The notes beneath the pieces are model-generated. The model saw only the letters and a list, made by a program, of their open reading frames with translations. It made no database searches and was not told the DNA's origin. The position numbers and the translations under genes were made by a program. Below are positions 1 to 55,054 of a DNA stretch of 64,000 bases, in pieces (the stretch's first letter is position 1; the number at the start of each line of letters is the position of its first letter). This DNA comes from Rhizodiscina lignyota. Lineage: Eukaryota. The stretch covers positions 310,001 through 374,000 of the forward strand of contig ML978122.1 of the NCBI GenBank assembly GCA_010015805.1, given 5' to 3'.

Positions 1-1288
1 AAGATCCCATGTGAGAATGATGGAGACACCAAAGATACCTTGAAGCCAGCTGCAGGCTGTCAGGGACAATTGATGCTTCAAATCGATTGTTGCAATTCCA
101 ATCATGCCACATATTCCGGGTATGAAACCCAAAATGATGGTAAGCACCAGCGTATTCGGCACTTTGCTGACAAAGATTCCGGCGGAAATGTTGCAGACAA
201 ACTGTATCGCACCGCTGGGCATCTGATATTGTACGCTTTTGAGGCTGTCGTATCCGAAGCCTTTCAGAAGTATCGACATGAAATTTGTCACAGATCCGTT
301 CAGAATGCCCAGACACAGAGCTTGGAGGGCTATGCAATAGACTTTTGGATCCCCCAGACATTCCCATATCTGGTACCAGAGGATCTTTGAGTGTTTGACT
401 CCGGTACGATTGGATGCTATGCGCCAAACAGATACCACCTTCTCCTCGTGTGAGAAGAATCGGACATCGTTGGGAGTTGACGGAAGAATGAAGAATAGTC
501 CAGCACCGGAGACGAAACTCATGGCGCCAATTACTAGGAAAACCAGTTTCCACGTGGCAATAGCAGGGTGGTCGATGGTCCCAATTCCCCAAGAGATGCC
601 GGCACCAGCGAGGGAAGACAAGCCATTCATTCCAAGCCAGCAAGACATTCGTAGCGGAGCCTCCTCGCGCGTCCAGAACATGGTCGTCAATGAGATCCAG
701 GCAGGTCCGATACATGCTTCGGTGCCTCCAAGAATAAATCGAATAGCGGCTATACCAGCGAAATTGTGCACGGCGCATGTGAGCATTAGTACAGCTCCCC
801 AAACCATCACCATGACTGTCACGAACTTTCCAATTGGAAGCTTTTGGAGAGCAATTGTAGATGGGTAAGCGCAGGCGAGATAGCCAATGTTCGTGAGCGC
901 TGCTACCCAAGAATAATCTCGTCCGACCAAATTCAGATCCTGCTGAAGACCGTATGCGCTCGAGTAGTTGAGGGTCTGTTTGTCGAGAAACTGCATGAAG
1001 TATACCCAACACATCTTCGATACGTTAGTCAACGTCAATTGCAACGGATTGAAGGTTACTTTCCATTGGTAGTAATATAAAATCAAGTTTCCTTCTGACT
1101 TTGGCTGCAACGAGTTCTCTCCGGTCAAAGTCCAGAGTAAAAGACTCCTTGTAGAGTCCCAAAGCAACGTCCGTATGGATTGGTGATGCAGTTATAATAT
1201 CGGGGTCGACAACATCCAACGAGTGTAAATTTGTGTTCTTCTCATCGCCACCTTTTTCCGGCGCAACTGGGCCGATAGGAGAAGACAT
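1..1288 (-). CDS. MFS transporter, allantoate permease (Dal5/ACS) family; 3' end runs off the window
   Basis: ATG at 1288 (MSSPIGPVAPEK...KVRRKLDFILLPM), intron 1063-1015, then MCWVYFMQFLDKQTLNYSSAYGLQQDL...DYSW...RFILGGTEA...FWTREEAPLR...WKLVFL, typical of Dal5-family permeases. The best-fitting intron donor is GAAAGT (non-canonical). Confidence 0.85.
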
Positions 1289-2101
1289 GATGTTACGAGG
1301 GCTCTCGACAAAGCAGCGCACTTTCCAAAGTTTTCCACAATGATTCCATGGAAGGCCTACCTTGGCTAGAAATAGGCCACCATATGGATCTCTGTGATGC
1401 AGATGAAAGATAAGAACTGTTTTGATATTTGAGAAGGAGCTGGTTTGCCGTCGCGCAAGCATGCTTGCGACGAAGCAACAACGACGCTATCAAACCCCCA
1501 CCGCAGCGGCGATCATTTTCGGACTACGTTCGCCGACCTACCTGGCTAAACCAGTCAAATGGCTCCGGCGACTCGTTCTGCCTGAACTTGACTTGGTGGT
1601 TGATGCTTCTTAAGACTCCGTCGTGAGTCGTGGACAGGCGCGTTATCCCGACGAGGGTTCCATGATTGGAATTGAAAAGAGGGCATTAAGACCACTGGCT
1701 TATTTATGGTGTTCAATGAGATATCGGAGCGACTTCGCAACTCCGGTATCAAGATCCTGTCGTACATGCATAGATTTATCAAGCAGAGGTGAGAAGGATA
1801 AAGTAAACGTGGACGAAGGACGAGAACCGCGCTGATAACAATTAGACGACTGCGATTGCGGAAACAAATGACGTCTTACCTGGTTAGGGAGGTCCATGCG
1901 AGGCTTGCGGCATCCACGGTATTTGATTGCATGAGTTTGGGATGCTTTACTCCAGCAAAAGAGGGAATTGAAAAGCCGTAATCCGTCCTGATACATTTCA
2001 TTTTAAGAATAAGATCTCATCCACTTCTCTCTCCTCCAAGAGGTACCAACGCGGATCATTTCTTCCACTGGTTTTGCACAATACATTATCTATTTGAAGC
2101 C

Positions 2102-4343
2102 ATGACCGCTAACGCTCGAGCCCATCCATTACATAATATCACGGACGTCGAGATCTCGCGCGCGACCACTATCGTAAAGGATCTTGCTGCCCAAAAAGAC
2201 AAAGCCAATGGCACTAGTACGAATCCATGGTTCAAGAGTGTCTCTCTAAGTGAACCACCGAAGGCCATTCTCCTTCCATATCTCGACGCCGAAGCTGCTG
2301 GCGTCCCCGTCTCACAGCGGCCTTTCGTCCCAAGATGTCTTGAAGTCATTTGGAGCTCAAATAACGAAAGAAATGTCTTCGTGAGTATTGTGAGTCTTGA
2401 CTCCAATACGGTAGTGGGCGAGACCAGCAAGGATCATGCACAAGGTCCGAATGACCGGTAAGGGTACATGAAACTTGAATTACAGTGCTCCATTACTCAT
2501 TATCATCTCAGCTTCGAGGTCAAGAAGGCATCCCAAATCATTCTCAATGATCTGAGGGTAAAGGAAGAAGTCAAGAAACTGGGTCTACCCGACGACGCGA
2601 TCATCCAGTGCGATTCTTGGATGTATGGCGCCGACAGGGACTCAACGCCTGACACGCCCAAGGCTATCCAAGCTCTTCTATATGCCCGAGCCCCACACAA
2701 TCATCCGGAGAGCAATCAGTAAGTTGTCTTATGATGCAAAATGCAATGGAGAGTCGTGCTGATTTGCCGTGGATACGCGTTCCCTCTGCCTTTCTCCCCT
2801 CTTCTTGATCTTTACCTCCAAAAAGTCGTGGAAATCACTCCATTGGCAACTGGTGGTAAGGAGGATGGCCTCGCGTATCATACTGGCGGAAGCAAACCGC
2901 TGGACCATTGTGCTGAGAATGAGTACTACCATGAGCTGATCAAGGAAACTCGGACAGACCTGAAGCCGCTGCAAGTCGTCCAACCGGATGGGCCCAGCTT
3001 CAAGGTCGAGGATGATAATTGTGTGTCATGGCAGAAGTGGCGTTTCAGAGTGGGATTCAACTACCGCGAAGGTCTCGTTATTCATGACGTACGCTACGAC
3101 AAGCGGCCACTCTTCTATCGCCTCAGTGTCAGCGAAATGACCGTCCCGTATGGAGGTTCGTCGGTCTTGTGCATGCTCTCTGTCCGGATTTGCGCTAACA
3201 CATATTGAAGACCCCCGAAGTCCGTATAATCGCAAACAGGCGTTCGACCTCGGGGACGCTGGTGCTGGAAGTACAGCTAATACCCTTTCGCTTGGCTGCG
3301 ATTGCCTTGGTACAATCTACTATTTCTCTGAATGGCTCAACGACGAACACGGAGCACCAACCCGTGCTGAGAACGTGATATGCCTTCATGAGCAAGACGG
3401 TGGGCTCGGTTGGAAACATACGAATCCGAGAACTGGGAAAGCTGCGGTGACACGAGCTCGTAGTCTTCTCCTCCAGATGGTCATCACGGTGGGCAACTAT
3501 GAATACGCCTTCGTGTTCTGCTTCAATTTGAACGGAAACATCGAGTTGGAGACGCGTGCCACAGGCATTCTGTCGACGGCTCTTATCGACCCAGGCAAGA
3601 CAAGCGACTGGGGCAACGTCGTATCTCCGGGCGTCCTTGCACCGAACCATCAGCATCTCTTCTCCTTCCGGATAGACCCGATGATCGAGGGTGCGAACAA
3701 TACTATCATCCAGGAGGATACTGAGGCTGTTCCCCAGTCCGAGCACGAGAACCCGCATGGGAACGCCTTCCGCATCGTCAAGAAGCCATTCGAACGCTCC
3801 GGTTTCGCAGATGCCGCACCCCTTCAGAACCGCGTCTTCAAGATCGTCAATGAGAAGAAGCGTAATAGGGTCAGCCAGAATCCAGTTGGGTACAAGCTCG
3901 TTCCTCAGCCTTGCCAGCTCATCCTGGCGACTCCTGGATCTGTTGCTCGACGCCGTGCCCGTTTCGCGGAACACCACATTTGGGTTACCAAGTATCGGGA
4001 CGGCGATCTCTGGGCTGGTGGAAAGTGGACAAACCAGTCTCTTATCGACAAGGACGGTGTTGTCGATGCTGCTGCTAGGAATGAAGATGTGAGGGATAAG
4101 GATCTCGTGCTATGGTGCACCTACGGCATGACCCACAATCCACGCGTAGAGGATTTCCCAGTCATGCCATGCGAGATCACGACGATAAGTCTGAAGCCGA
4201 GTGATTTCTTTGAGCGCAATCCCGCTATAGATGTACCGCAGAGCCGGCAGGAGGATAACAAGAGTGTTCTTGTTGGAAGCCCGATGACAGGCACGGCGGA
4301 GGTGGCTGGACAGATGGGAAGCTGCCATAAACCCAAGTTGTAA
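2102..4343 (+). CDS. Copper amine oxidase (TPQ-dependent primary amine oxidase), probably peroxisomal
   Basis: TVGNYEY TPQ motif, HQH copper ligands, AFDLG catalytic Asp, [14 protein letters not shown]-terminal PKL (PTS1-like). Introns 2458-2511, 2719-2772 (GT-GG), 3156-3210. Confidence 0.93.
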
Positions 4344-4497
4344 CGATGTATTTATCACGGCGCATTAATAATTGGTCGCGTTGTCTGGAGCATCTGCAAA
4401 TGAATTCAGTCATGATGGATGGAGGATTCAAAAGCTCCTTTTGTTCCAATTCCAAAAATTGGACCAGGCCTCCTTAGCCTGTGCCCGACTGTCCGTT

Positions 4498-4732
4498 CAA
4501 GTGGGTGACAAAATAGTTGAGTCATGGCTACAATATATAGAACTATGAGAATGTACATCCTCCATAGTTAATATAAGGTATACACGGTGAAGCTGCGCAT
4601 GTTAGATAAGCGAACTCCAGTATATATTTTATCGAACTTTTAGAGATGCTCTCGCTTGCGTTGAAGAGAAAACCTCGTTTCTACTAAATACGTTCAAACT
4701 TCACAGGACTCGACTATTTTGTCACCCTCGTG
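4498..4732. mobile_element. MITE copy A (~235 bp, ~26-bp terminal inverted repeats)
   Basis: Left end CAAGTGGGTGACAAAATAGTTGAGTC and right end GACTCGACTATTTTGTCACCCTCGTG are inverted repeats. AT-rich non-coding interior, alignable along its length with 10929-11162. Confidence 0.85.
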
Positions 4733-5023
4733 CCCGACTGTCAGTTCTCCACTGCAATCTCTGCGTCGGAGGGGCCAACGCAGCACCTCCTCGAAACCGA
4801 TCATTCCGCCGGTTTTATCCCCGCTGTTGAATGCAAGCACAGATGGACACGACGCCGCTTGTGAAGCGGGGGAGACCGGTTCTCGCCCTGGGCTTGAGAC
4901 CGAGGTGTGCGGGGTTGCTCCGATCAGAGACGACGAGGCATCAAAAGCTTCATGAGGTAGCAGATGACTGTACCTACATTCTAGTCTGGCCATCAAGGTT
5001 AACCTGAGAGCACATAAATCACC

Positions 5024-6294
5024 ATGGGTCTCCCAGAAAAGATGCGCGCTGTCATCCTCAAAGGCGACTTCGAAGTCGCTGTAGAGGATCGCCCGGTGCC
5101 CAAGATTCAGAAGCCTACGGACGTCATCTTGAAAGTCAGCGCTGCTGGACTCTGTGGCTCCGATCTTCATTTCTACCGTGGCCATCTTAAGTGTCCTCCT
5201 GGATTTATCTGCGGCCATGAATTCGTTGGTGAGATTGCGGAGAAGGGAGAGGAGGTCACAAAGTTCAACGTGGGCGACCGTGTCGTAGTAAGTTGCCCTA
5301 TGGTGGAAAGAAGGCACTTTGCTAATCTGCAAAACATGTACCATTCTATACGGCTTGTGGCGAGTGTTTCTATTGCAAGCAGGGTCAGGCTTCCAGATGT
5401 CCGAAAGGAGAATTGTTCGGGAACAGCGCTCCTGCAAACACAATCGACGGAGGACAGGCGGAATATGTCCGTGTACCTCTAGCGCAAACGACGTTGGCCC
5501 CGGTTCCAGATGGTATCCCGGAAGAGATGTTGGTGTTGATGGCAGAGTAAGGCGCCCTCTGAAATGTGTTCGGAACGAACGATCACGCTGACCTTTACAT
5601 CAGTATCTTTCCCACGGGCTATTTCTGTGAGTCCTGCTCGTACATGGTCCAGTAATATACTCACAGATTTGTTCTAGGTGCAAGCCGATATCTGCAGAAT
5701 CTAGGCCCTGCTAAGCGTAAGGAGACGGTAGCGGTTGCAGTTGGCTGCGGACCAGTGGGTATCTGTGGCATTACGGCGGCCTTGACTATGGTGGATACTG
5801 TGTATGCCATTGACAGTGTTCCGGAGCGCCTCGCAGAGGCAGAGAAGATTGGAGCAAAGACGATTCTCCTAAACGACAATCCAGTCGAAAAGATCAAGGC
5901 GGCCACTGGTGGAAGAGGCGCAGACGTCGCACTGGAATTCGTTGGGCATGGCGATGCACTCCAGCTTTGTATCGACCTTGTTCGGCCTTTCGGACAGATT
6001 AGCACCGTCGGCGTTCACACGGAGATGCTTCAGCTTAACGGCCTGATGCTGTATGGAAAGAACCTCACTATGGCATTTGGCCGATGTCCAGTGCGCAGCA
6101 TTTTCGAAGACGCCCTCGCACTTTTGGTCAAAGAGCAGGATAAAGTGAAGTTCTTGTGTGGAATGTTCATGAGCTTAGAGGAAGCGCCTGAGGCGTATCG
6201 GATATTCGAACAGCGCAAGGTAAGATATGCAGCACGATTTCTGTTGACCTTGAGCTTACTTCTGCAGGTGCACAAAATTATCTTCAAGCTCTAA
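5024..6294 (+). CDS. Zinc-dependent medium-chain alcohol/aldehyde dehydrogenase (MDR, formaldehyde-dehydrogenase-like subgroup)
   Basis: GLCGSDLH, GHEFVG, structural-Zn CGECFYC...C, DIFPTGYF, GCGPVG Rossmann motif. Four introns; the first (5288-5337) ends in CAT. Confidence 0.92.
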
Positions 6295-7120
6295 TGTAAT
6301 TGTTCGTACTCCACCACATAGTATCGTACTCCTCGGGAACAGTTTCCCGCAATTTCCAAAAGTCTAGAAGTCATTCGTCATTGAATAAAAGGTGAAAGTG
6401 AGAAGCGCCGTGATCCTCTGACGCAATATTTATAGTGCCCTCTGAACAGTGCGACTATTTTGACTCCAAACACTTTCGCTGAAGCATTTCATGTTGGGCT
6501 CTCCCGATTACGTAATTACCCCTGAATACATGTGCCTTTATAACACTACTTGGAGGTAAACCTCAGACCACTCGATTATACACTTGCATAAATACTTAAT
6601 TCAGTATATATACTCTTATACGATCCGATTTGTGATCCGATTTGTGTTTATGCAATTATGTGTCGATCTTGGTGTTGATCTTAGTGCAGGCCAGGATCCC
6701 CGAACCCGTGTAATCTCCGAGAGCGTTATAAGCAAAAAATTTGTCCTTCCCAAGGCCTTCCTTAGCCCGTGAAGCGCTCTATTCGCGCTCTAATCGAATG
6801 CGGAGATCGGTTGATCCATGAACGCAGAAACTACATTAGATAATCAGTTTTCACTTGGCCCCGAGCCAATATCCTCAGGTCGTCCACCTGTCCGTCATGG
6901 GAACGGCCATCACAGGTCACTCTCTTGATACCGAACTTTCTACGACCCTCGATCGCCTGTCATGTATGAGACAAAGCAATGACTGTCAGAACACGATCGA
7001 AGTACTTCGCAGGTAGTCGTACAGATATAAAATGAGGCAAGTCAGTGCAAAGCCAAGTGATATCCACTTTACGTTCGACGCCTGCATTTCTATCCAGTTT
7101 GAGCTCACAGCACAGCCGGC

Positions 7121-8909
7121 ATGTGTGTAACCCGTTCTTGCTTGCCATGCAGAGGCGCAAAGGCAAAGGTACGAGGCTGTTTCCATCTATCATATGCGTA
7201 TATGCTGATAGAAGACCATAGTGTGACCTTGTTCGTCCCAGCTGCGGGCGCTGCACCCAGCGAGGATTGATTTGTTCCGGCTTTCCAGAGGACGCTGATT
7301 TTGTCTTTCTGGACGAGAATGAGACGGCTCAGAGAAACTCTCAGCGTGCGAGGAAAGAGTGGAGGCGGTCTCCCGGGGCAGGTACTTCGAGTTCGCTCAC
7401 CCATGTACAGCAGGGCCAGCAATCGCCAGCTGCCGCAAACGAGGTGGATGAATTTCTCCGGCAACAATACTCATGGCTCAATGAACGTGCATATACCCAA
7501 GTATCAGAACCGTTGAAAAGAGACCTTGAGGCCAGAGCCGTGGAGCGATTCTTCATCAACTGGACATTGCACCCGAGCAATCACGGCGTGTCCCCGGGTG
7601 AGTCCTTGATTGTAGAATCGTTGATCTTTTCAGCTAATGATTAGCTTTCAGGCCATATGCATGATCTCCCCATGCTCTTTCTCGGTGCCCCACCAGATTC
7701 CATTCTTTGGCATGCTGTCCGCGCTGTTGCCTTTGCAGACATGAGGAATGAGAGTTCTGGAGATTCCCCGTTCTATGTCAAGTCGCGGTTGCACTACGGA
7801 GCCGCTTTGAATCGCACGAGAATGATACTACATGATCAGCAGGACTTGTCCAACGACCGTGTTCTCTCCGCTATACTACTAATTGATAACTTCGAGGTAA
7901 GGTACCATGAGGCTGTAGTATTCCGAACCCTGTCCTAACATTTGACTTTGTAGCTGATGTACCTGATGCGGACCGATCCAGTTGGTCCTCATAGTGAGGC
8001 TATCAAACACATTTTGCATAGCAGAGGTGACGGGCAACTCTATGATTCGGCACAGTTCTCACTCTGGCGTTTGGCACATCACCGGCTTTTGTCCCGGCAG
8101 GTTCTACTCCGCGAACAGCCTGATCCTGAGCAGATAGCTTGGGTGAGCAAATTGAACGTTGACCGGCCGGACCTCCATATCTGTGCTGATGTCCTGCATA
8201 TGAATATTCTCAGCGCGGCAGCAAAGAAGCTGACCCAGACTATTGATGACACTGAACCGATACGGGGAGGAAAATTAGAGCAGGCAAAGCAAATGACTCA
8301 AGAGATGCTGAATCTGATTGAGACCATCGAGAGCTGGACTTTAGAGATGACCGGAGTGTGGAAGCCGAAGATTGAAGACACCCAGAGTATCGCAAAGCCT
8401 CAAGACGTTGGCGAATCGCCCAACTTTCCGATTCCCCATTTCCCATGTCCACGGTTCCTCCGCTACCAGGACATATGGTTGGTAAGAGACATCTAGTTGG
8501 AATTGATGAACTGGACTAACTGTGAACCAAGGCTTATATGTGGAACTTCTATGCGGCAAGCCAGATTGTTCTCCGAGAGTCGTTGACAGACGTTGTCACC
8601 TACGCGGCCACACTGCTAAACCAGGAGGAGCCGGATGAGAATGGCATGTCAGTCATCCAGAAACAACGTGGTCGGGTGGACATGTTGTCTGCAGCCATTA
8701 TTCGGTCATTTCCCATGCTTCTTGGATTCACTCACAGGCACGAACGACCTGGAGGACCGCGAGTTCTTCAACAGGGCAAGATGGCAGGTAGACTGTTCTC
8801 TCTGTTCTCCATGTGGGTGGTGCAAAAGGCACAATTCACGTCATCTCAGCATAAGCAGACTGCATCTGAGGTTATCTCCTGGATTAACTTTCGTCACGGG
8901 TTGCACTGA
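7121..8909 (+). CDS. Zn(II)2Cys6 fungal transcription factor
   Basis: ATG 7121; spliced N-terminus MCVTRSCLPCRGAKAK|CDLVRPSCGRCTQRGLICSG gives the six-Cys cluster; four canonical introns link ORFs 7267-7644, 7657-7938, 7957-8496 and 8538-8909. Confidence 0.88.
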
Positions 8910-9543
8910 GCTCGATGTTGGCACCATGCGCAACCACACCAGCACCACAGGAACTTTATCACTTCCTGGATAATGAGGATTAGCATCACAGCACCGCGGC
9001 AGTAGACCTATTCGGGTTATGCATCCGGACCCTGGATCTTCACCACGTAAAATGCATCGCTCCTCTTTTCAATTCTCGCAAAGCTGATCGTCAACCGCCT
9101 CATAGGGGACTGCTTCAACATCCCGTCATCTCTGGACCTTTGCAGGTCGCTTCCGACTTGCATGTCCTGGTCCGCCTAGATCTGTCCACACCAGCATCAC
9201 GAGCACTGCGAGAGAGGTGAATGTGAGCAACTTTGCAATCAGTCATCAAAAAAGACATATCGAGCTAGATATCGACATCGATCTATCCATCTTGAAGCTG
9301 AAAAGTTCTGAAGCTACGGCTTGCCTAGCTGATTATGAACATAATAAAGGCAATTACGCAAATTACATGGTTTTTGTTCACCACAAGTCTTCTTTCGAGG
9401 TCAATGAAAACATTCTTACTAGAATGAAAATAGTGGCCAACGCCTAACTTTTTGAATTAAATCGCTCAAAGTCATTCTCAACATTTATCGGACTCCCATT
9501 GGCTCGAAGATGACCATTTACTCTAATACGGCTCTCGTCAACT

Positions 9544-10107
9544 TCAGAACCCCGCCTCCATCGCCTGTTCCAACCCCTCCACACCTTGAACTCCCTTAAA
9601 CCAACTCACTCTGCTGTTAATGAACTGCTCGACTCTCGGTCTCAACTTTGTCTCATGCAAATTGAAGTCGTCTACGGTCCCGATCCTCAGAATGCTCTTT
9701 CCCGGAAACCTGCTGCCTCTTCTGTACAGCAGGGTTCCGCACACGGAACAGAAACTGTTCTCCATGACGCTCCCCGAGGCAATGGTCTTGCTTTGCGCCC
9801 ATCTGGTCAATTTGTCTTCCCCGCGGAGGTGCTTGAGACTTCGGTCGTTGACGGTGAAGTTTGAAGCGAACATCGACGCGGTGATTTTGCGGCAATCCGT
9901 ACAATTGCAGACGAAACTGGTGACGAAGTCTTCTCCCTCTACAGGCTATCCGAAACGTAAGCTTAAGTGACGTGATGGCAGGGTCTAGTAGTGGGGGTTT
10001 ACGAAGGAGAGTTGCACGGCTCCACAATAACAAGTCGCCGTCGCCGTCCCGTCTGGCTGAATGCCAGATGCACCCTGCGAAGGGAGTGGGATGTTGCTTT
10101 CAGACAT
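9544..10107 (-). CDS. GFA/Mss4-like (CENP-V/glutathione-dependent formaldehyde-activating) zinc protein
   Basis: ATCYCGAVQLSF|PVEG...FVCNCTDCRKITASMF...FCSVCGTLLY Cys pattern; one canonical intron. Confidence 0.88.
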
Positions 10108-10928
10108 ATTTCTCTCAACTGGCTAGAGGTACTTTGATCAAGGGGCTGCGAGTGAATTGGAGAACTGATAATCTGGCCATGCTCTCATGTCTCTGCATTA
10201 TATATACATCACTGTCCTATCACGCGGGCCAATTAACCCCCGAAATAGTGTGCTTTTATGTCATCGCCAAAACGGCATTGAGGTCGAAAGCTCTAGTCAA
10301 TGCTGCACTATCTCTAGACCTCTGGCCTAAAAAGGTGATGCATCCTGCGCTAGAACTCTAAAGCCAAACCCATCACGTGATCACGTGCCGGGTGAAAAGG
10401 TATTTTCAATTATAGCCTACGAGTACACGCTGCTGCTTACAAAGTTTTCAAGTTTAATGTACGAGAGATATGAAGTTCTTCGGTAGTGCTGAGTCAAGGT
10501 TGGAAACAACGTCGTCTCATATCATGATGTATTCTCGAACCGCACAGTTCAACGAGAGAAGATTCTCAACATCTCGTTTCGCAATTCATGCAGCACTAGA
10601 CCGCGACAAGACCGTACATTTGGAGAAAATGTCTGCAAGGTGGAGTAGCACTGGGACCTTGGTATGAGTATACATGCGATCAGGTTTCAGGTAGGATTTG
10701 CTCAAGATATCATGTTCGCTACCTTGTAGTCTGCGGAGACTGCAGGAGTACTGAAAGTTCGAGGCTGACCGCATGTCCATCATCTTGCGGACAGGACTTT
10801 CCGACCCGCCAGTTATGTCACGATCAATGAGACAAGCTATACTCTCTACTCGGTCTAGCAGAACAACATTCCCTGGAGGTGGCGAGCTCGAGAACTCACT
10901 TATCAGACCAGGGAGAGCGGTAGTCAGG

Positions 10929-11162
10929 TAAGTGGGTGAAAAAAAAGTTGAGTCATGGCTGCAATATGTCGAATAGCGAGGATATATACACTCACTAGTT
11001 AATATAGATTATACATACTAACGCTACGCGTTTTAGATAAATACGCTCTAGTATATATTGAATCGAGCTTTAAGGGATGCTCTCGCTCGTACTAAAGAAT
11101 TAAACTTGTTCTTACTATAGCCGTTCAGTTAAAGCGGGCTCAACTATTTTGTCGCCCGCGTG
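10929..11162. mobile_element. MITE copy B (same family as 4498-4732)
   Basis: TAAGTGGGTGAAAAAAAAGTTGAGTCATGGCT...GGCTCAACTATTTTGTCGCCCGCGTG. Shares interior blocks with copy A (TAGTTAATATA, TTAGATAA, AGTATATATT, GATGCTCTCGCT); flanked by TCAGG on both sides. Confidence 0.85.
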
Positions 11163-11460
11163 TCAGGGCAAATGTCGTAGAGGCGAGCACGAGAACAAGA
11201 GGAGGACACCAAGCGGTCCGATGTGAACAGGTTTTGCGAACTCCTTGAACAGAGAATCTGCAGGACTTCTCAGAGGCAAAAGGTCAAGACAACCGTCACG
11301 AGGGTCACGAGGGCATTTTCATCCATTGCATTGCTGTTACGCCTGTGTTTGGATTAAACATTACGCTTGTCTCTGCTCATTGCCCATAGTCACACCAAGG
11401 TACTCTCGCTAATTCGACCAGTGCAGCCCAACGCCATCAGTGCAGTCCAACGCCACCAGA

Positions 11461-13158
11461 TTAGGCCGGAGTACAAGCAAGCTCGCCGATTGCCTTCAGC
11501 GCAGATTCGATCCATGTACCATGACTCATGATAGTAGTAGTGTCGTTGCTGAATGAATTCCCCGTCGTATTGTCAGTTGCGCTCCGAGCAATGATCAAAT
11601 TCTTGTCCGGGTTGTTCGTGCAGACGCCGTAAAACACGCCATTGTAGGCGACTTTCAGCTCCTTCGGCTTCGGGTAATGTGGCCGAAGAGCCATCCCATC
11701 CATTATTTCGACTTCATCTGTCCGTTGGTATGCATGCTCTTTGAGGAGCTCTTTCATCTTCATCGCGTGCTCGAGAGGGCTCCATGAGGGATCCCACACG
11801 TCGGGCTTGTCGGCGGCAACGGTCAGCCAAGTTGCAATCATTCCACCCTGTCTTGATTGTAATTGCGAGTCCACATGGGGTTTGAATTGATAACCAGAAC
11901 TTACGACAACCGCAGTAGCTGGACTCGTTGCAGCTCCGTACTTCTGCGACTTGGGACCACTGAGAGCCCAGGGATTGTTCGATGCTCCCCACACTTTACG
12001 GGATAGGGCATACACAGTTATGGTGCCCGATTTTGCTCCATCTCTGGTTGGAGTAGTGATTGGGTTGAGATATCCCTCGATGCTCACGCCTCCCACAATG
12101 ACGATCGGATTCTTGTCTGTTTCGAGAGTCTGCGGGAACCAATTGTCGACAAAGTCTTCCTGTTCTTGGTTTCCAGAATTGCCGGCAGATAGCACGATGA
12201 TGACTCCTTCATTTGCCAGTTCATCGAACAAGACCTTCAGCTTTTGTTGCAGCTCGTCAGGGTCGCATTCGCTCTTTTCAAAGCCTGTTCTACGGTGAGC
12301 CGCCGTAAGAATATCTCAAGATTGGAAAACATACTACTGGTGAGGACTACAACGCTTCGTTTCCTGTAGACATCCGGTTTTGCTTGCACGACGTCGCGAA
12401 TATGAGCGAATGCAGCCTCGAAGCCATTCAAACTGTTGTAGGTCATGATCTTGGGGTTCTTGTTCCCCTCTTTGCCAAAATCTGGGTTTTTGACGTCGCC
12501 CATCATTTTGATCAGATAGAGTTTCGCTCCGCTTGCAGACCCATGGATTGTTCCTGCAGCAACACTAGCCATGAGAGTTCCATGTCCACTTGCGTAAGTT
12601 CCTTCTGATGTCTCCTTGAGTTTGCCAAAGTTGTCATGAATAGACTTGGGCTCCCAGAGCTCCTTGTCATGAACATCTTTGAGGGTGATTTCATTTGGGA
12701 CAATATACTGCTGTGGAGGGCCTCCTGGCCTAGCTGTGTAGTCCTAGAGGCGTATTAGCTAAAGGAAGAAGCAATCGCTCGTTAAAGCTCACCTCATTAT
12801 CGACATTGAAGCCTGCGTCAATGACGAAGATTGTAGTACCCTCCCCATTTGACTTCGGAAAGACGTAACCCGGTTCAAGAGGTTTGCCGCTAGGCTGACA
12901 GAGAAGCTGGAGATGCTGTGGAGCAACTGGTCTCTCTGAAAGGTCGACATAGTGGGGATGCGGATTATCAACAGGAGCGCGCTTGGACTTAGAGCTGGTC
13001 TCGGACTCCGCAGTGGAGCTTGAATAGATTGTGGAGAATGTGGAGGGCGCAGAGGAGGGTGCGGAACTCGTCAATCTTTCCTCAAGTGTAGCTTGAGAGA
13101 CCGCTTGACTCGCAATTAGGAGGATAAAGGCAAGCAAAGTCAACAAGTAGCGAAGCAT
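11461..13158 (-). CDS. Secreted subtilisin-like serine protease (S8), divergent
   Basis: Signal peptide MLRYLLTLLAFILLIASQAVS; GEGTTIFVIDAG (Asp), GHGTLMASVAAG (His), SAGNSG (oxyanion Asn), ATSPATAVVGG (Ser); three canonical introns. Confidence 0.8.
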
Positions 13159-14805: not shown

Positions 14806-16663
14806 ATGCCTTGGTTGAGCCAGAACTACCTTCCTCTTCCTCATGAGGACTTACTCTCATGGGTTTTCGATCACACGACTTATGATCTCGATAAACCAGT
14901 AAGGAGCATGGCGGTTCTTCATTTCATGTCTTGAATTCTGATCTCGCCCGTATCAGATCTATATAGATGCCGAGAATACGTCCCGTACATTATCATGCCG
15001 ACAAGGAAAGAGCATTGTGCGCAAGCTCATCGCGGGTTTTCGAAAGGCAGGATTGAAGAAGGGAGATTGTGTGTGCATTACATCTTTCAATGATGTATGG
15101 CATCACGCCATCCAAGGTTGTCAACAGCTGATGACGATCCGGTAGATCATGTACTCGATGGGCTTCCTTGGTATTATCGGCGCAGGTGGCATCTTCTCTG
15201 GGTTCAACCCTGCCTATAAGCCTTTCGAAGTCCGTCATCACATCCGCACTGCCGATGTTTCAATGTTCATTGTCGAGCCAGAGTTACTTGCCAATGTTGT
15301 GGACACTGCGACTGCGGAAGGTATACCGAAGGATAAGATCTTCGTGTTCAACACGCGCGGACAAAAGGTTCCTGAAGGCTTTCGGTCATGGGAATGGCTT
15401 CTACAGCACGGTGAAGAGGATTGGATCCGGTTCAACGACTTGGAGACGTGCAAGGGTACCACGGTGGCCAGACTGACAACGAGCGGGACGACCGGACCTC
15501 CCAAGATGGCGATGCAGAGTGTGTACAATGCGACGAGCTTCCATACGATGATGTATGATGTACACCCAGTGCCTTGGGAGCCCCGATATCTCTACCCTCT
15601 ACCCCAGTTCCACGTTTCGACGGTACCTGGCGTCCACGCCTCGCCGTTCCGCTCCGGACATGTCGCGTACATTATGCGCAGATTCGAGCTTGAGGCGTAC
15701 CTTGCTGCCATCAAGCGCTTCCAGATTAATTATCTGGGCATGGTCCCTCCCCTCGTTATGGCTATTATAAATTCACCCCTGCGACACAAGTACTCCCTCA
15801 AGTCCATACGGAGGGTTGGCTGCGGTGCAGCTCCACTGGACAAAGGCTCTCAACTGCAATTCAAAGCATTATGCGCGCCGGGATGCACATTTACGCAGGT
15901 GTGGGGAATGACAGAGACAACCAGCGCGCTTTCCATGTTCTATTATCCCGAAGACGACGACACAGGTAGTGTCGGTAGTCAGTTTATGGCGAACACCGAC
16001 GTAATGTGAGTATGGACCGGGCCCCTCTTGCGTGTTTGGATTCTTTTGACCAACAATGAAAGGCTTCTCGATGAAAATGGAAACGACATCACGGACTTTG
16101 ACGTTCGCGGCGAGCTTTGCGTGAGAGGCCCGACCGTGATTAATGGATATTATAACAACCCAAAAGCGAACGCAGAGTCTTTCATCGGAGATGGATGGTT
16201 CAAGACCGGCGACATACTCTATTGTGACGGGAAGAGTAAGCTGTGGTATATCGTTGACAGGAAGAAGGGAAGTTCGAAGAATCACGAAAGGAAACCCTGG
16301 GGAAATGGCTGACGAAGCTGACAGGAATTGATAAAAGTACGAGGCTTCCAAGTAGCACCTCCCGAGCTTGAAGAGGTCATTCTGGCACATCCGGATGTTG
16401 CAGACTGCGCTGTGATTGGCATCAAGATGTCCAAGCTCTCACAGGATGAATCACCGCGGGCATACGTTGTACGGCAGCCAGGAGCGAAGATTACAGCAGA
16501 AGATATAAAGAAAGTCATATCAGACACGCTTGCTAGCTACAAGGCATTGACCGGAGGAGTAGTCTTCATCGATGAAATACCCAAAAGCCCTTCGGGAAAG
16601 ATGCTGAAGAGAGTACTCAGAGAACAAGCCGAAATAGAGCTCCAGACATTAGCAAAGCTGTAG
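14806..16663 (+). CDS. 4-coumarate-CoA-ligase-like acyl/aryl-CoA synthetase (ANL family), peroxisomal
   Basis: TSGTTGPPK P-loop, QVWGMTET, GELCVRGP, WFKTGD, DRKK|ELIKVRGFQVAPPELE, PKSPSGK; C-terminal AKL (PTS1). Four introns; the last (16268-16324) starts GGAAGT. Confidence 0.92.
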
Positions 16664-16708
16664 TAACAATCTGGGATTCCTAAAGAGAGAGAGAGAGATA
16701 GAGTCATT

Positions 16709-18695: not shown

Positions 18696-18801
18696 GCTTC
18701 CATATTGAGAGACCTCAAACTGGCGCACGGTGTTGAAGTCTATCAGCACCGAGCCATCATCAGGCTGAGCCATCGGCATGGGCCACGTCGAATCGTGAGA
18801 G

Positions 18802-18854
18802 CACGTGGGCCCCGTTCGCATCCCACGTTATCCCCACGTGTGGCTTGACACGTG
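18802..18854. promoter_or_regulatory. Cluster of E-box/PHO-box sites (Pho4/NUC-1/PalcA type)
   Basis: CACGTG at 18802, 18835 and 18849 plus CACGTT at 18824, in the divergent promoter of the PHS transporter and the Zn2Cys6 gene. Confidence 0.7.
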
Positions 18855-19058
18855 CTGAGTGGAGGAGCGGTGCGCCAAGACTACGGCGAGAAGCCCGGTG
18901 GGCGGGGGTAGCTGGATATATCTTTCTGTTCGACTCGGCGCTCGTCCGACCTCAGCTTGCCATACCGGCAGTACGTCCGCATCCTAAGGCTCGTCAGCGT
19001 CTGTGCTAAGACTCTAAAGTGAAAGAATTGGGTACGGTGCGACAGTTATCGTCCAATC

Positions 19059-46520: not shown

Positions 46521-46868
46521 AGAAGAGTAGTGAGGCGGTGAGTAACTATGAGACTGAATTGCAGTTGATTCTGGGTGAGTCGTTGAAATCGAAAACATTC
46601 ATCGTACGCTTTGATGCTTAAGACTAATGTGAATACCTCTGATGTAAATGAAATCACTGTTGGCGAGGTGCGCAGTACATGCTCATGAAACTCGTAGTTT
46701 GGTGCTGAAGGGAGGGACGAGAGGCAATGTAAAGTTCCATTTTAGATCCATGCATCAATCGTCTCTTGAGACCAACTCCGCAATGTCAGAACCTGGTGGT
46801 AGTCGATTTCGCAAACTACGTATTGTTGTTTGCCTCGCTTTTCTCTATCCGTCATTTCAATTTTCACG

Positions 46869-49382
46869 ATGAACTGGACCGGCGGGCGCCTTCAACGCCA
46901 TTCCCATCGCAGCCAAAATACCGTACTCCAACGCCAAAAGCAGCATTTTGCTAGAGTTCAGACGCGTCTTCAGCAAACTCCACAACCGCAAACTCTTCCT
47001 TTTCAACTTAGCTTCTTGCGTCACGATACCGCCACCCTTGTTGGCTGTGTGACTCCATTCGGAGACCGCTCTCAACGACATACCGGTCACGCAAAGGGTC
47101 GCCAGCAGACACTCGAGAAATTCGAGTCAACAAGACTACTTGCGACGCGTCTAGCTTCGCTTAAGAGGCGTATATCACCATCGGCAACTACGAAGACGCC
47201 AAAAACACCCAACAACGCGTCGCAATCGCGGTATTTATCGCCGCTTCAAGATGACGACCAGTTGTACGAAGCTCCGCCACAACGTTCGTCAAGACAGCCA
47301 CCCGTTGAAGCAAGGGGCCATCAGCATGTGTCTTCAGGATACAACCATGCACCAAGCTCTCCGCAACGCCGAAGAAGGCGAAAGGCGTCGTCATCCGGTG
47401 AAGAGCTAAGGCTGCTTGAAACCAAGAGGAGGCGTCTTCTTGCACAGAGTGACTGGGCTGGTTTAGGGCCTTCCCGCCCTGTACACATGAACCATCGACA
47501 ACGGAGTGACAAAGGTGAGATGGGTAAGAGGAGGAAGATTGACAAAGGCGATCGTAGGCATGCCATGACACACATCGAGCGCCATTCGCCTCTACTTGGC
47601 GCAGCTCATGGACCCCTTGGATTTAAGAGCAAGAATGAAATTCGGGCAGCGATTAACGAGATCAGCATTCGAGTCGGTACAGGAGCCCTATCTACACAGT
47701 TGTCTCAAGGTGCCTCTACCGAGATGCAGCAAAACGCAGAACGACCGACACCCGATCTACCGCAACCACTCCACCGTTACAAAGAAGTAATCGAGATCCC
47801 AGAAACATCATCAATCGAAGGTGAACAAGGGTCAGGTGTGCTCCATGAAATGGATACACATCCCGAGCTAGATCGCTCAAGCTCAATGCTTCTTGATGCT
47901 GAAGCTGAGTACAGCATGGCGCCTGCTCTGGAACATTCCGAGCGCATACCGGAGCAAGAATTTGTTAGATACTCTGACGGAGTTCATAAACGTTATGAGC
48001 AAAGCGATCTGGCCACCAATGCCTCCTCTGAAGATGAAGTTCGTACTGGATCCGTGCATGCGATGTCTCCAACCCCTGTATTGGCAGTGTCTCGAGATGG
48101 CGAGACTCAAACTTATGATAATGCCCTTCCCTTGTCTCCGGAGGCACATTTCCGACTTGTTTTTCAAACGTCTTCGTCGCACATGCCCAAGTCACCAACG
48201 CACATGAAGGCTGTCGGACGCCAGTCGCGGGAACCGAAGTCGGTGCTGGACACGAGCTGGACAGACACAAATTCACACGGCTCAGAGCATGATGCTGTTG
48301 GTGAGGAAACCTGGCGAAGGATCTTGTCATTTCGGAGTGCAGACTCAGCATACACTGCTCAAACGGGCTACATCGGCCTACCCAATCGGCGAGGGAGCGT
48401 GTCAAGCCACGAAGACCAAGTCGTGAATGTGGCCTCGCAGGAGGCTGAAGCTTTGAATCCACGCGGAGATACCTCCGAACGCTCATTTGTCGAGGCTACG
48501 GGACATCCAAGTCATGATCGCTTCCATGATGGCAACTTTTCACTATTCATCGATCAGTCAACGTCGAATTTACGCGATCATTTCGCTGAACCTGTTGAAG
48601 TACTGCATGAACAGCGCAACAAAGCCATCACACCTAAGACATATGACCCAGACGAGGTCTGGAAGAAGTTTGTATTTGGCGATATCGAAGTCGATGAAGA
48701 TGTTGCTCGACAGGTGGCCGAATCCAGTTGTGATAAAATCGTCAGTGAGGGCATGAGCACTGCTGGAGGTCAGATAGCCGACCGGAGTACATCACGATTC
48801 TTCGCTCCAGCGCCAACGATGCGGCTGTCAAGTGAGCTAGCATTCAATGAAAGCAGCACTGTTTCGTCACCAACGTCACATACCCAAAGCGTGCCCGGCC
48901 GAGACCTGCCTCCGGCGTCGATGGTCAACCATGCACCTGACACAATAGCGAACGTGTCCGTGTTATCACAGCCCACCGAAGGATCGCAAATAGATCATTT
49001 TGCGGCGAATTTAGCAAATTCAATGGTTGCTCAAGCATCTTCACATCAGCCAATTTCCTCTTCGCTCTCACCTCCTCCGGTCGATCTGGATAGCCCAACA
49101 GAGACCGGAACCAGTAATTTCCATGCACCAAGCAGAAGCGCAGGTACATCCGGAGCAATATATGCGACTTCTGAAATCACCAGCACGCGGGCAGTAGGAC
49201 GTTCCAATTACCGCCGCGCCGCTCCAACGATGAAAGGCCCAATGACTCGAGCCAGCAAGAGACACGATGAACAAGGTGCAAAGGACGTACCGACATTCTC
49301 CACAGAGAGAAGTGGTAGGAAAAACTCCCATGTTGGAAAGTCCGTATCAGTCTATGACTTTCCAGAGAGCGATGCTCCGTAG
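46869..49382 (+). CDS. Large, mostly disordered protein with a HEIP1/REDIC1(C12orf40)-like N-terminal motif
   Basis: 837-aa open frame starting MNWTGGRLQRHS...QRQKQHFAR; the rest is Ser/Pro/Arg/Glu-rich low-complexity sequence with short aromatic motifs (LLAQSDWAGL, EETWRRIL, DEVWKKFVFG). Confidence 0.7.
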   Translation: MNWTGGRLQRHSHRSQNTVLQRQKQHFARVQTRLQQTPQPQTLPFQLSFLRHDTATLVGCVTPFGDRSQRHTGHAKGRQQTLEKFESTRLLATRLASLKRRISPSATTKTPKTPNNASQSRYLSPLQDDDQLYEAPPQRSSRQPPVEARGHQHVSSGYNHAPSSPQRRRRRKASSSGEELRLLETKRRRLLAQSDWAGLGPSRPVHMNHRQRSDKGEMGKRRKIDKGDRRHAMTHIERHSPLLGAAHGPLGFKSKNEIRAAINEISIRVGTGALSTQLSQGASTEMQQNAERPTPDLPQPLHRYKEVIEIPETSSIEGEQGSGVLHEMDTHPELDRSSSMLLDAEAEYSMAPALEHSERIPEQEFVRYSDGVHKRYEQSDLATNASSEDEVRTGSVHAMSPTPVLAVSRDGETQTYDNALPLSPEAHFRLVFQTSSSHMPKSPTHMKAVGRQSREPKSVLDTSWTDTNSHGSEHDAVGEETWRRILSFRSADSAYTAQTGYIGLPNRRGSVSSHEDQVVNVASQEAEALNPRGDTSERSFVEATGHPSHDRFHDGNFSLFIDQSTSNLRDHFAEPVEVLHEQRNKAITPKTYDPDEVWKKFVFGDIEVDEDVARQVAESSCDKIVSEGMSTAGGQIADRSTSRFFAPAPTMRLSSELAFNESSTVSSPTSHTQSVPGRDLPPASMVNHAPDTIANVSVLSQPTEGSQIDHFAANLANSMVAQASSHQPISSSLSPPPVDLDSPTETGTSNFHAPSRSAGTSGAIYATSEITSTRAVGRSNYRRAAPTMKGPMTRASKRHDEQGAKDVPTFSTERSGRKNSHVGKSVSVYDFPESDAP

Positions 49383-50380: not shown

Positions 50381-52788
50381 ATGGCCAGATTCACACCAGA
50401 GTGAGATCAAGAACTGTTTGAAGCATTACAAAACTTACGCCGCTAGGGTCTTCATTGAAGCTCCGCGCCGGTCCTCGGCTGTACCAAGTGATGATGGTAC
50501 ACTCGCTTTGTATACAGTCTCGAGATATTCCATCGAGGCGAGATTAGAGTCGAAAGAGATCCGGGTAATGAACCTGGACACTGGTGACTCTACGTTATTC
50601 TCGGACGATCAGAATGTGAAAGAGCCGACCTGGTTTGGGGAGAGCAATCAAATTCTTTGGCAGCGGTCGCCGGAGGATGGATCCACCGAGCTGTGGGTAA
50701 GCAATGCTGTGGGCGAGAAAGAGTATTGGCCAGATTCCCCTTTTTATCTAATTGACGCTGATATTTGGTACAGGACATATCGTCTTGGAGAAATCGATGG
50801 AAGCATATCCGATTTGAAACTGAAGCCTCTCCCAAACGGAGAAATTGCGATCGCATTTACTGCAACCAAGGCCGAGGGCGGTAAACTGTTCAAATCTGGT
50901 TCTGTGAAGTCACCAGCATCAACAGCTCGAGAGTTTGATACGCTCAAAGTGCGTTATTGGGACCACTACCATAAAAAGGAGAAGGGTACATTATGGTACA
51001 CAACCTTGGAGAGAGTCAAAGCGACACCTCGCTATGCGCTAAATCTTGATCATCTAGTTGACGCCCTAAAGGGCACTGGCATCGAATTTCCATGGTGCGA
51101 TGGCCCGTTTGGAGAAGGAGGACAGTACAATCTCTCGCCCAAAGGCATTATACTAACTGTTCTTGACCCTGGAACCGACTATACTCGCCGCATCACCAAC
51201 GCGCTGTATATGATCCCGGTGAAATCATTCAGGGAATCTGCATCGCCTCCAATTAAGATAGACATTCCGAATTTCACAGGGTCTGCATCAGGAGCTGTCT
51301 TTTCACCAGATGCCGAGCGATTCGCATTCTTGAAGGCCAAGGATTGGCATGGAGACGAATCCCAAAGGATGCTCTTTGTTGCTTCCACTGCCAGTCCAGA
51401 AAAGCCACAACAAGTCAAGCTCTGCACCTCCGAGGCAAACACCAAAGAGTGGGACCGATCCCCAGAGTCAATACTCTGGTCAGAAATCGATCAGGAGCTC
51501 TATCTTAGCATTGAAGATGCCGGACATAAAAAGGTTTTCCGTATCCGGTTTACCGAAGACGGTGAATCCTGGCAAGCGGTCCCACGAGTCCTTACTGGAG
51601 GTGGAGTTGTCAACGATGTGTATCGACGGAGGAATCCCCATTCGCTTCAGATCCTGGTCACCAGATCGTCTTTAGTCGACAGTAGTTGCTTCGATATTAT
51701 AGATGTAGAGCCCGTAGAGATCTCACTCACAAGCTCATTCACCGACCACGGCGCTTCATTCGGCCTTCATCCTGGCCAAGTCTCGGAATTCGCATTTCAA
51801 GGTTATGGTGACTATACCGTCGAAGCTTTCCTCACGAAACCGTCGAACTTCTCTCCGAACAAAAAATATCCTTTGGCTCTGCTCATGCATGGTGGCCCAC
51901 AAAGTTCCTGGCTCAACGCCTGGTCGACGCGATGGAATCCTGCTGTGTTCGCTGAGCAAGGATATGTCGTTGTGTCGCCCAACGTGACTGGATCGACCGG
52001 ATTTGGAGATGATTTCAGCCGCGCAGTGCTGGGCGACTGGGGAGGGAGGCCGTACCAAGATCTGGTCAAATGCGTTGACTACGTCGAAAACAACATGGAG
52101 TTCATTGATATGGAGAGAGCTGTTGCTCTTGGCGGTAGTTATGGAGGCATGTGCTCTCCGATGCAGACTATTGAGACTACTATCACTGACGTTTTCAGGT
52201 TACATGGCTAATTGGATTGCCGGACAACCGCTGGCGAAGAAGTTCAAGGCTCTTGTCTGTCATGGTCAGCCACAATTATCCCAGCACAGCGTCTTACATA
52301 GGATTTAACTAATTCTCATACAGACGGTATCTTTACAATGGCCAACCTGCTTTCCTCTGACATTCCCGCCACGCTACCAGAAGATATGGGTGGGACTCTC
52401 TGGGAGAACCAAGAAGCCTGGGATAAATACGATCCCTCCCGACACACTGCCAACTGGACACAACCGATGCTGTTCATTCACTCCGATAACGATTTCCGCT
52501 GTCCGATCACCGAAGGCCTAGCGGCATATACCGTGTGCCAGCAGAAGAAGATACCATCTAGGTTCTTGAATTTCCCCGGTATTGAGAATAAATCCTCGCC
52601 ATGATCAAACAACACTAACAGAGGTGCGCATAGATGAGAATCATTTTGTGTTGAAACGAGCGAACTCGTTACACTGGTATCGAACCGTTCTCGGCTGGGT
52701 CAACAAATACGCTGGGGTGACAGATGGTGTGGTACTTCAGTCTCCTGTCACTGAACCGAACTGCAGCAAAGCCGAATCAGAAGAGTAG
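50381..52788 (+). CDS. Dipeptidyl-peptidase V-like S9 serine peptidase, lacking a signal peptide
   Basis: VRYWD, HGGPQSSW, STRWN, TGSTGFG, GGSYG|GYM nucleophile (split by GC-AG intron 52147-52198), HSDNDFRCP, FP|DENH; five introns. Confidence 0.92.
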
Positions 52789-53242: not shown

Positions 53243-53431
53243 GCTTATGATAGACTTGAGCGCAGCAGGTGGGTCAGAATTACCTACGATGTAGCGTCGA
53301 GGTACGGACACGGCCCGGTTCCGATTCCAAACGATCCGCTTGAAGACTTACTATATTACACTACTTGTTACGAACATCCGCTTGATAATACCAATGAGAG
53401 CTCATGACATTCAATAATATTAATATATTTG

Positions 53432-55054
53432 TCAAAGCATACTCTTTCCCTTTGGCCGAGCAGCCATCAAATCCCTCCCCTCCTGTGCAAATGCTAACTC
53501 GCTCAAGATCTCCTCACTGCCACCCCCCACAACCATAACCCTCACATCGCGACTAATCTGCTCGATCCTCGCTCCCTTTCCAGTTCTAGAGTAGCCAAGT
53601 CCGCCCATGATCTGCTGCGCTTCACGCACAGTTTGCTCGAGTGCCCTTCCGGCTATGACTTTCAATAATGCTACCAGCCCGCCAATTTGTGCTGGTTTTG
53701 CATCAGGAACGATTTCCTTGTTCTGATTGTTGGTTTTGGTGGAAGATTGAGAGGCGTTGTTGGAGAGCGCAACAATCGATTCCATGAATGCGTGAGCGGG
53801 CAAGATACTGGCTCCCATTGTTGTAAATTTGGAGCGGATGGCTTGGTGATTGATGAGAGCGGTGCCGAAGGTTTCCCGGGAAAGGGCATAACTATAGGCG
53901 TCTTGCAGACAGGTTCGTGCGAGACGGAGACCTGTGCAGGCTAGCCAGAGTCGTTCGTGATTAAAATCCGGGGGGATGTTAGCAGATTTTCCGACAAGAA
54001 TTCAGAAGAGGAACGCACTTGACATTATGATTTTGAAGCCTTGGTTTTCCTTTCCTAAGAGATTCGAGACTGGAACTTCGACGTCGTCAAATTCAATGTA
54101 TGTAGAGCCTGTGGCATGTTAGAGCAAGCGACTGCTAATAATACAGCTGAAACGAACCGCTTGCAGAGACGCCAGAATTCAAGATCTTTCTCCGCGTTAC
54201 GCCTTTACTGGTGAGTGGGATAATGAGAGCTGAGATACCGCCTTTGCCTGGGCCGCCAGTGCGTACTGCTGTGGTGCTGTAGCTTGCCCACATGCCGTTC
54301 GTGATCCATTTCTTGGCGCCGTTGACGATATAGACGTCGCCTTTGCGTTCGGCAGTTGCGGCGATGTTTGATACGTCTGAGCCAGCTATATGAAATTCCC
54401 TATTAGCTTCCCCTCCTGTTGAATATCGTTTGTACAAGTTGAACCTCACTTCTCATGTCTATGAATCTGCGAAGAAGAGAACGTAAGGCATACCATCTGG
54501 CTCAGTAACAGCTAGACAAAACCGGCTTTGGCCTTGAATCACCTTTGGCAAGAATTGGCGTTTTTGAGCCTCTGTGCCAAAGTTTATTACGGGTGGAAGG
54601 CCAATGGCGTCTCCGCATCCCAGTGCCCAGATCACGCCCAAGTAACCACAGCGTGCAATTTCATCGATACAAATGAGATCGTGGAATGCGTCCCATTGTT
54701 CTGGTTTGATACCGCTGGGGAGTTTGATGTCCCCAAGATAGGGACCTATGGCAGCTGGATTGACAGTGACGGCCGTGAAGCCACGTAGTGAATGTTCGAG
54801 GAGAACCTACAAAGTGGATTCGTTAGGAAGGAGTAAAAAAAACGAGCGTGTGAGAAGGGAACAAGAACCTTTGCGGGGACAAAACCTTGTTCTTCCCATT
54901 CTGCGCAGTTAGGGGTGATTTTTTCTGAGATGTAGGCCCGTATGGTGTCTCTTAGACGTATGTGAGAGTCATTGTAGTAGGCTTCTGTTGGACGGGTGTG
55001 CCAGAGGGGTTCAGCAAAGGGTGCGATTTCTGGGGCCTTGCGGGGTGAGGACAT
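53432..55054 (-). CDS. Acyl-CoA dehydrogenase (long/branched-chain, AtuD-like)
   Basis: LAVTEPD|AGSDV, NGAKKWITNG, FNHERL, ETFG, QIMGGLG, VGGGSEEIL; C-terminal SML. Four introns, one (54018-53968) ending in CGG. Confidence 0.92.

Follow-up and report, generated by a model that had tools for sequence, protein, structure and literature searches.

Five short introns with off-consensus splice dinucleotides and strong remaining splicing signals in accessory genes of Rhizodiscina lignyota

Five genes in a 64,000-nucleotide stretch of the Rhizodiscina lignyota genome (assembly GCA_010015805.1, contig ML978122.1, positions 310,001 to 374,000; this whole stretch is called the window below, and positions are counted from its first letter) each contain one intron whose ends depart from GT-AG by a single base. 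The genes encode a transporter, a copper amine oxidase, a Zn-dependent alcohol dehydrogenase, an AMP-dependent ligase and an acyl-CoA dehydrogenase, and are otherwise intact. We interpret the five as real, ancestral introns of the major (U2) type, in each of which one base of the GT or of the AG has recently changed. Of the explanations considered, we favour the one in which they are still spliced at the ancestral junctions, probably less efficiently than before, and put its chances at about even.

The introns are written here with exon letters in lower case and a slash at each junction. The transporter, a member of the allantoate-permease type of the MFS family that runs off the window start (1..1288, minus strand, 413 codons open inside the window), has a GA-AG intron of 49 nt at 1015-1063 (minus strand; atg/GAAAGT...ACTAAC...CGAAG/atg). 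The copper amine oxidase gene (2102..4343, plus strand, three introns) has a GT-GG intron of 54 nt at 2719-2772 (plus strand; tca/GTAAGT...GCTGAT...CCGTGG/ata), and the Zn-dependent alcohol dehydrogenase gene (5024..6294, plus strand, four introns) has a GT-AT intron of 50 nt at 5288-5337 (plus strand; gta/GTAAGT...GCTAAT...AAACAT/gta). The AMP-dependent ligase, which resembles 4-coumarate-CoA ligases (14806..16663, plus strand, four introns), is interrupted between ..DRKK and ELIKVRGFQV by a GG-AG intron of 57 nt at 16268-16324 (plus strand; aag/GGAAGT...GCTGAC...GACAG/gaa). The acyl-CoA dehydrogenase (53432..55054, minus strand, four introns) is interrupted between ..IIMS and NFNHERLW by a second GT-GG intron, of 51 nt, at 53968-54018 (minus strand; caa/GTGCGT...GCTAAC...CCCCGG/att). 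These dinucleotides and coordinates, read directly from the sequence, agree with those given in a preliminary description of this DNA made from the letters alone. The GC-AG intron that it placed at 52147 is likewise real, and is an ordinary intron of an S9 peptidase gene (52147-52198, plus strand; gag/GCATGT).

The position of each junction follows from alignment with homologous proteins. At the amine oxidase junction one 18-codon gap (..HP[DE]SNQ / YAFPLP) is seen against all six homologues that were aligned, which are 51-55% identical in the N-terminal alignment or, for P0003 with its shorter alignment, 62% identical, and at the acyl-CoA dehydrogenase junction there is a 17-codon gap in seven of seven homologues (..IMS / NFNHERL). 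The upstream exon of the ligase matches solved 4-coumarate-CoA ligases and luciferase to residue 437 (5bsm, 5u95, 6abh), 436 (5bsw) or 434 (3a9u), and the downstream exon picks up at residue 438, 437 or 435 of the same structures. For the alcohol dehydrogenase, the alignment with 4cpd covers residues 1-82 and, resuming at the next exon's second residue, 84-147, and the alignment with 2dph reaches residue 88 (residue 87 of the 88 in the query) and resumes at residue 90. The corresponding stretch of the transporter (..LP[MAFLS]MC..) is ungapped in all seven full-length homologues. Shifting the boundaries of any of the five introns by 1-3 bases gave poorer dinucleotides or altered a conserved residue. 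Removal of the introns restores the conserved protein in every case and leaves clean open reading frames (ORFs) of 693, 346, 545 and 448 codons for the amine oxidase, alcohol dehydrogenase, ligase and acyl-CoA dehydrogenase respectively (proteins of as many amino acids), and of 413 codons for the part of the transporter that lies inside the window. The motifs that span the junctions, i.e. DRKK/ELIKVRGFQV, the CGECFYC stretch and NFNHERLW, are intact relative to solved homologues. Retention of the intron would introduce a premature stop in all five genes.

Such introns are far more frequent in the window than published fungal rates predict. A hand-curated set of 47 introns in 18 genes contains 41 GT-AG introns, one GC-AG intron and the five others; 7 predicted introns in a regulator gene (60415-62605), the introns of unnamed genes and those in the 5' part of a Cdc14-like gene were omitted from it as uncertain. 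The lengths of the curated introns range from 48 to 117 nt, with a median of 55 nt (n=47). With a crude gene finder we obtained 21 models that together contain 57 introns, and the preliminary description's denominator of roughly 58 introns is reasonable given these two counts. Published shares of introns outside both the GT-AG and the GC-AG class are 0.257% across fungal annotations (PMC7072748, Table 1), 0.31% of 2,604 inspected introns in Fusarium graminearum (PMC3577648) and ~0.59% in a manually corrected annotation of Ganoderma lingzhi (PMC11590231, Table 1; 0.593% was used in our calculations). Five in ~47-58 introns (~9-11%) is 15 to 90 times these rates. The excess first pointed out in the preliminary description is thus confirmed, the probability of at least five such introns being 2e-7 to 3e-5 per window at the three rates, although the window was chosen from a very large scan, and 1e4-1e5 fungal windows should still include 0.1-3 of this kind if the highest rate applies. 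We consider it unlikely that the five introns cluster by chance.

The letters were checked against Logan contigs of sequencing run X1, which are built independently from reads and have a word depth of ~155-159 here. The comparison spanned the first 20 kb of the window, and the contigs matched it letter for letter over 1-4526, 4706-11024 and 11124-20000, with 0 differences and 0 gaps. Four of the five introns are covered; the acyl-CoA dehydrogenase intron (53968-54018) lies beyond the 20 kb. The comparison upholds the sequence at these four introns, whose off-consensus letters are not assembly errors. X1 is the only public run found with this DNA, no RNA run being listed for positions 1-10000, and may be the assembly's own sample; because the two are perhaps the same sample, the check rules out errors of assembly and polishing, whereas mutations specific to the sample would escape it. 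A repeat of ~198 nt occurs in two copies that are 73% alike (4499-4696 and 10930-11127), at which word depth climbs from ~155 to as much as ~4,800 and many read-derived contigs stop. This element is a short, high-copy dispersed repeat in the R. lignyota genome.

Apart from the changed base, the five introns look like major U2-type short introns. Their lengths (49-57 nt) fall inside the curated range and each has a CTRAY branch site 11-13 nt ahead of the 3' end, confirming the normal length and good branch sites reported earlier. Donor positions +3 to +6 fit an RNGT-like pattern in all five; +1/+2 is GA or GG in two of them, which to that extent fall outside the GT/GC rule, and a YAG end is lacking in three, which finish in GG, AT and GG. 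We scored the introns on their signals with the dinucleotides left out of the score. The five scored 10.3-16.0, compared with a median of 9.7 and a range of 3.2-14.6 for the 41 GT-AG introns (one-sided Mann-Whitney p=0.019). AAGT occupies +3 to +6 in four of the five off-consensus introns versus 4 of the 42 others (Fisher p=0.0018), and the branch site fits CTRAY in 5 of 5 versus 28 of 42 (p=0.15). Random knock-outs would strike introns at random, whereas tolerated sites should carry compensating signals, and the strength of the signals therefore favours tolerance.

Several other intron types and processes were considered for the five and rejected. U12-type introns are marked by a donor [AG]TATCCTT together with a TCCTTAAC-like branch, and the donors seen here (GAAAGT, GTAAGT, GTAAGT, GGAAGT and GTGCGT) rule this type out. 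None of the five has the AT/AC pair of the U2-type AT-AC class. Stwintrons, i.e. nested twin introns, would not fit into 49-57 nt, as the shortest curated intron is 48 nt, and each of the five has a single donor and a single usable branch site. A-to-I RNA editing fails because the DNA has G where A is required, and an edited GA donor (GI) would read as GG rather than GT. Finally, RIP-type mutation (C>T or G>A) does not fit any of the five changes, which comprise two of A>G and one each of T>A, T>G and G>T.

The transporter intron is the one whose change can be dated, by comparison with relatives of the gene. In two environmental relatives (L001 and L002, 70-76% identity) a GT-AG intron, with a length of 61 nt in one and 63 nt in the other, occupies the identical codon boundary. 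On the relatives' contigs the read-through ORFs P0346 and P0347 both continue as ..LLPM-V-C, one of them ending there (..LLPM-V-C-stop) and the other reading on (..LLPMVCSRT..); since valine follows LLPM, the donor in these relatives is GTN. The ORF that ends there appears to belong to the closest relative (P0122, 87% identity), which accordingly reads GT at this donor. Across five relatives the donor is GT in four, ambiguous in one (read-through ORF P0345) and GA in none. As the relatives have GT at a shared position, the intron is ancestral and the GA results from a recent T-to-A change, and on this comparison the GA donor is young and specific to the R. lignyota genome. Compared with the protein of the 87% relative, that of the transporter shows no faster evolution when five of six outgroups are used (12-15 versus 11-17 unique changes), whereas the sixth, P0123, gives an excess that is described below. 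The amine oxidase gene was absent from both environmental contigs. The preliminary description had suggested a lineage with relaxed spliceosomal fidelity; this is unsupported, given the GT donors of the closest relative of the transporter and of the two environmental relatives.

The kind of lesion found in the five genes also bears on whether they are simply decaying. Apart from the five introns, the genes carry 0 in-frame stops or frameshifts across 7,335 coding bases, so that these marks of a decayed pseudogene are absent and the statement in the preliminary description that they have no other lesion stands. A count of the possible targets showed that 834 single-base changes would make a stop in these genes and 176 would break a splice dinucleotide, which bears out the earlier reasoning that lesions from random decay are to be expected in coding sequence more often than at splice dinucleotides. 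The probability that all five lesions would fall at splice sites is 1.6e-4 for substitutions alone and 6e-6 to 7e-8 when indels are included at 5-20% of the substitution rate. If the one apparent frameshift located elsewhere in the window is added, the probability that at least five of the six lesions would fall at splice sites is 8e-4 to 4e-7. Plain gene decay fits the five genes poorly, because most of its lesions should be nonsense changes and frameshifts, and none is present.

A more specific form of inactivation, in which the five are young null alleles whose splicing is dead, with introns retained or transcripts mis-spliced and degraded, would make these genes very recent pseudogenes of dispensable catabolic functions, too young to have gathered more lesions; we regard this as a serious alternative, if less likely than continued splicing. 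Much of what weighs against continued splicing would also fit this explanation. All five changes are one step from GT-AG and the transporter's GA, which occurs in no relative examined, is young; fresh knock-outs would present the same picture. In yeast and mammals splicing is usually lost when position +2 of the donor or the AG is changed, and each of the five introns, if retained, would bring in a stop codon. The transporter, amine oxidase and alcohol dehydrogenase genes are adjacent at 1-6294, the first two divergently transcribed, and each holds one of the off-consensus introns; they plausibly form an amine-utilisation unit, and a single pathway loss could have taken all three. Decay does occur in the window, as is indicated by the apparent frameshift in an aldo-keto reductase gene (aryl-alcohol-dehydrogenase-like; 32666-33822, plus strand), which switches frame without an intron near 33004-33012. 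The break resembles a 1-nt deletion within a GGGAAAGG run, lies outside the read-checked stretch, and is crossed collinearly by the solved homologue 9wk1 (residue 88, then 90). Public gene models avoid these junctions: that of the transporter, P0121, takes a 31-nt intron instead, and for the amine oxidase the collection searched has no full-length model (at least 659 aa) from this genome. One outgroup, P0123, perhaps not a true one, gives the transporter 23 versus 9 unique changes (p=0.013), and the signal comparison depends on matrices hand-set from general consensus frequencies and on a hand-curated list of 47 introns from which uncertain ones were left out. Null alleles do not readily account, however, for five splice lesions beside not one stop or frameshift (p<=1.6e-4), nor for the concentration of random hits in introns with the best signals (p=0.0018 and 0.019 in the two comparisons above). 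They also sit poorly with the intact motifs that span the junctions in the ligase, alcohol dehydrogenase and acyl-CoA dehydrogenase, and with a transporter protein that is not accelerated with most outgroups.

A different possibility is that cryptic canonical sites have taken over, i.e. that the damaged site is skipped for a nearby GT or AG and in-frame variant proteins are made. The preliminary description had held that every one of the introns has an in-frame canonical alternative; this is correct for four, and for the amine oxidase we found no plausible one (best signal 0.2), its first AG past the branch being 53 nt further on and breaking the frame. The transporter alternative is the one used by the public model P0121, a 31-nt GT-AG intron (1015-1045, minus strand) that adds six foreign residues, ESNLQS, found in no homologue; it has a poor GTTGCA donor and a signal of -2.0 compared with 12.4 for the 49-nt intron, and is shorter than all 47 curated introns. 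In the other three genes the alternatives would cost the protein 9-21 residues that are conserved and can be aligned to solved enzymes. For the alcohol dehydrogenase, a 77-nt intron (5288-5364, plus strand) ending at the first AG past the branch loses the nine residues VPFYTACGE, including two cysteines of CGECFYC. The ligase alternative is 120 nt long (16236-16355, plus strand; signal 10.3) and loses 21 residues around DRKK/ELIKVRGFQV, and that of the acyl-CoA dehydrogenase is 78 nt long (53941-54018, minus strand; signal 12.1), ends at the first AG past the branch and loses the nine residues NFNHERLWL. A general switch to these alternatives is, in our view, distinctly unlikely. Least probable of all, and very improbable in our view, is an artefact, whether from read errors, from mutations of the sequenced culture only or from mis-modelled junctions. 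The possible identity of X1 with the assembly's own sample and the position of the fifth intron beyond the read check leave some room for it, but contigs built from the reads at a word depth of ~155x show no disagreement in any base of the other four introns, errors would not strike the splice dinucleotides of the best introns five times, and homology sets the junctions to the residue.

If the five introns are indeed still spliced at their ancestral junctions, the mechanism might be as follows. U1 and U6 would keep binding the donor, positions +3 to +6 being optimal (AAGT in four of the five), and the branch site would be recognised through the CTRAY consensus that all five retain. In introns as short as these the 3' cut would be placed mainly by the distance of 11-13 nt from the branch, so that a single off-consensus base would slow the reaction and not abolish it. 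The weakened alleles could then persist in accessory catabolic and transport genes under weak selection, from which null mutations (stops and frameshifts) would still be purged. The suggestion in the preliminary description that inefficient splicing serves to tune catabolic genes is unsupported. A more general proposal, which we think unlikely though worth stating, is that the spliceosome of this fungus accepts single-base departures from GT or AG when a short intron is otherwise optimal, and that the dinucleotides in weakly selected genes drift at about a tenth of introns.

The gene finder was of limited help with these genes, as loose settings joined genes into chains and strict settings dropped genes. 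When non-canonical sites were allowed it chose the ligase intron at its exact coordinates, the only one of the five so recovered, and in the amine oxidase it placed the donor correctly and the acceptor 3 nt off (2719-2769). One further non-canonical site that it proposed, at 52558-52633, proved false; the real intron there is GT-AG (52579-52633, plus strand) with a weak GTATTG donor. A suspected frameshift in a Pho84-like transporter gene was explained by a 52-nt GT-AG intron (17733-17784, minus strand) with a weak GTGAAC donor. Both of these canonical introns had been missed by signal scoring. A screen that combined signals with an open frame gave many shadow matches around true introns and did not discriminate. 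The protein collection that we searched contained no amine oxidase model of at least 659 aa from this genome itself.

The window as a whole is gene-dense and has the short introns of a filamentous ascomycete, with ~27 genes recognised by Pfam, most of them for accessory metabolism and transport. Besides the five described above and the Pho84-like transporter, aldo-keto reductase and S9 peptidase, Pfam identified a P450 and a GH53 glycosidase. The acyl-CoA dehydrogenase adjoins genes of leucine-catabolism type, in a group that includes an ORF with HMG-CoA-lyase and enoyl-CoA-hydratase domains and both biotin carboxylase subunits. That ORF (55566-57377, minus strand) is a single long frame in which the HMG-CoA-lyase-like and enoyl-CoA hydratase domains are both matched by Pfam, apparently a lyase-hydratase fusion; its neighbours are the acyl-CoA dehydrogenase, the two biotin carboxylase subunits and a fungal transcription factor, as in a leucine-catabolism-type cluster. 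Elsewhere, an unbroken ORF of 859 codons (46803-49379, plus strand) has no Pfam match at E<=0.1. A scan of the window with Rfam and for tRNAs gave no matches.

The dinucleotide classes found here are already known in fungi, and any novelty would lie in their density and in the pattern of compensation. RNA-seq of F. graminearum, like R. lignyota a filamentous ascomycete with short introns, revealed both GT-GG and GA-AG introns, and Sanger sequencing confirmed non-canonical sites in seven genes of that fungus (PMC3577648). The two cases differ in that the F. graminearum introns were seen in RNA and form only the small fraction of 2,604 quoted above (0.31%), whereas here 5 of 47-58 introns in one 64-kb window, read from DNA, are of this kind. 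In G. lingzhi, a basidiomycete, all four of the classes seen here are on the list of minor classes, where they are among the commonest (GT-GG 38, GA-AG 35, GG-AG 20 and GT-AT 18 of ~92,000 introns; PMC11590231, Table 1); together they amount to ~0.12% of introns in that fungus as against ~9-11% here. GC-AG introns offer a parallel for the proposed compensation, as they too are one base off GT and are tolerated with optimal neighbouring donor positions, and AAGT is enriched at the donor in the GC-AG introns of F. graminearum (PMC3577648) as it is in the introns described here. However, GC-AG is a standard class (~1%; PMC7072748, Table 1), and GA or GG donors and GG or AT 3' ends are 25-50 times rarer. 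In the animals Oikopleura dioica and Eurytemora affinis, GA-AG introns have become more frequent, so that there too an off-consensus donor class of the major spliceosome has risen at the level of a lineage, and a U1 variant has been proposed as the cause (PMC7072748). There a single class dominates, with conserved flanks and partial RNA-seq support, whereas the window has four classes in one or two copies each, at least one of them young.

Splice-site loss-of-function alleles and unitary pseudogenes resemble the present genes in being intact except for a one-base change of the GT or AG. Normally, however, such alleles are far outnumbered by stop and frameshift alleles and strike introns randomly, and neither is the case here.

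Whichever explanation holds, gene predictors mis-model these genes. If the junctions are unused, the five introns would represent a small cluster of very young catabolic knock-outs with an odd lesion spectrum, of local interest only. If they are used, four rare splice-site classes would occur together in short introns with otherwise ideal signals, at least one of them derived recently from GT, and would provide a natural series for asking how far the catalytic core and how far proofreading enforces the GT/AG rule. Should the spliceosome of R. lignyota generally accept such departures, it would offer a naturally occurring example of splice-site proofreading that has been relaxed. Use of these junctions would also mean that weak selection lets splice signals erode ahead of coding sequence.

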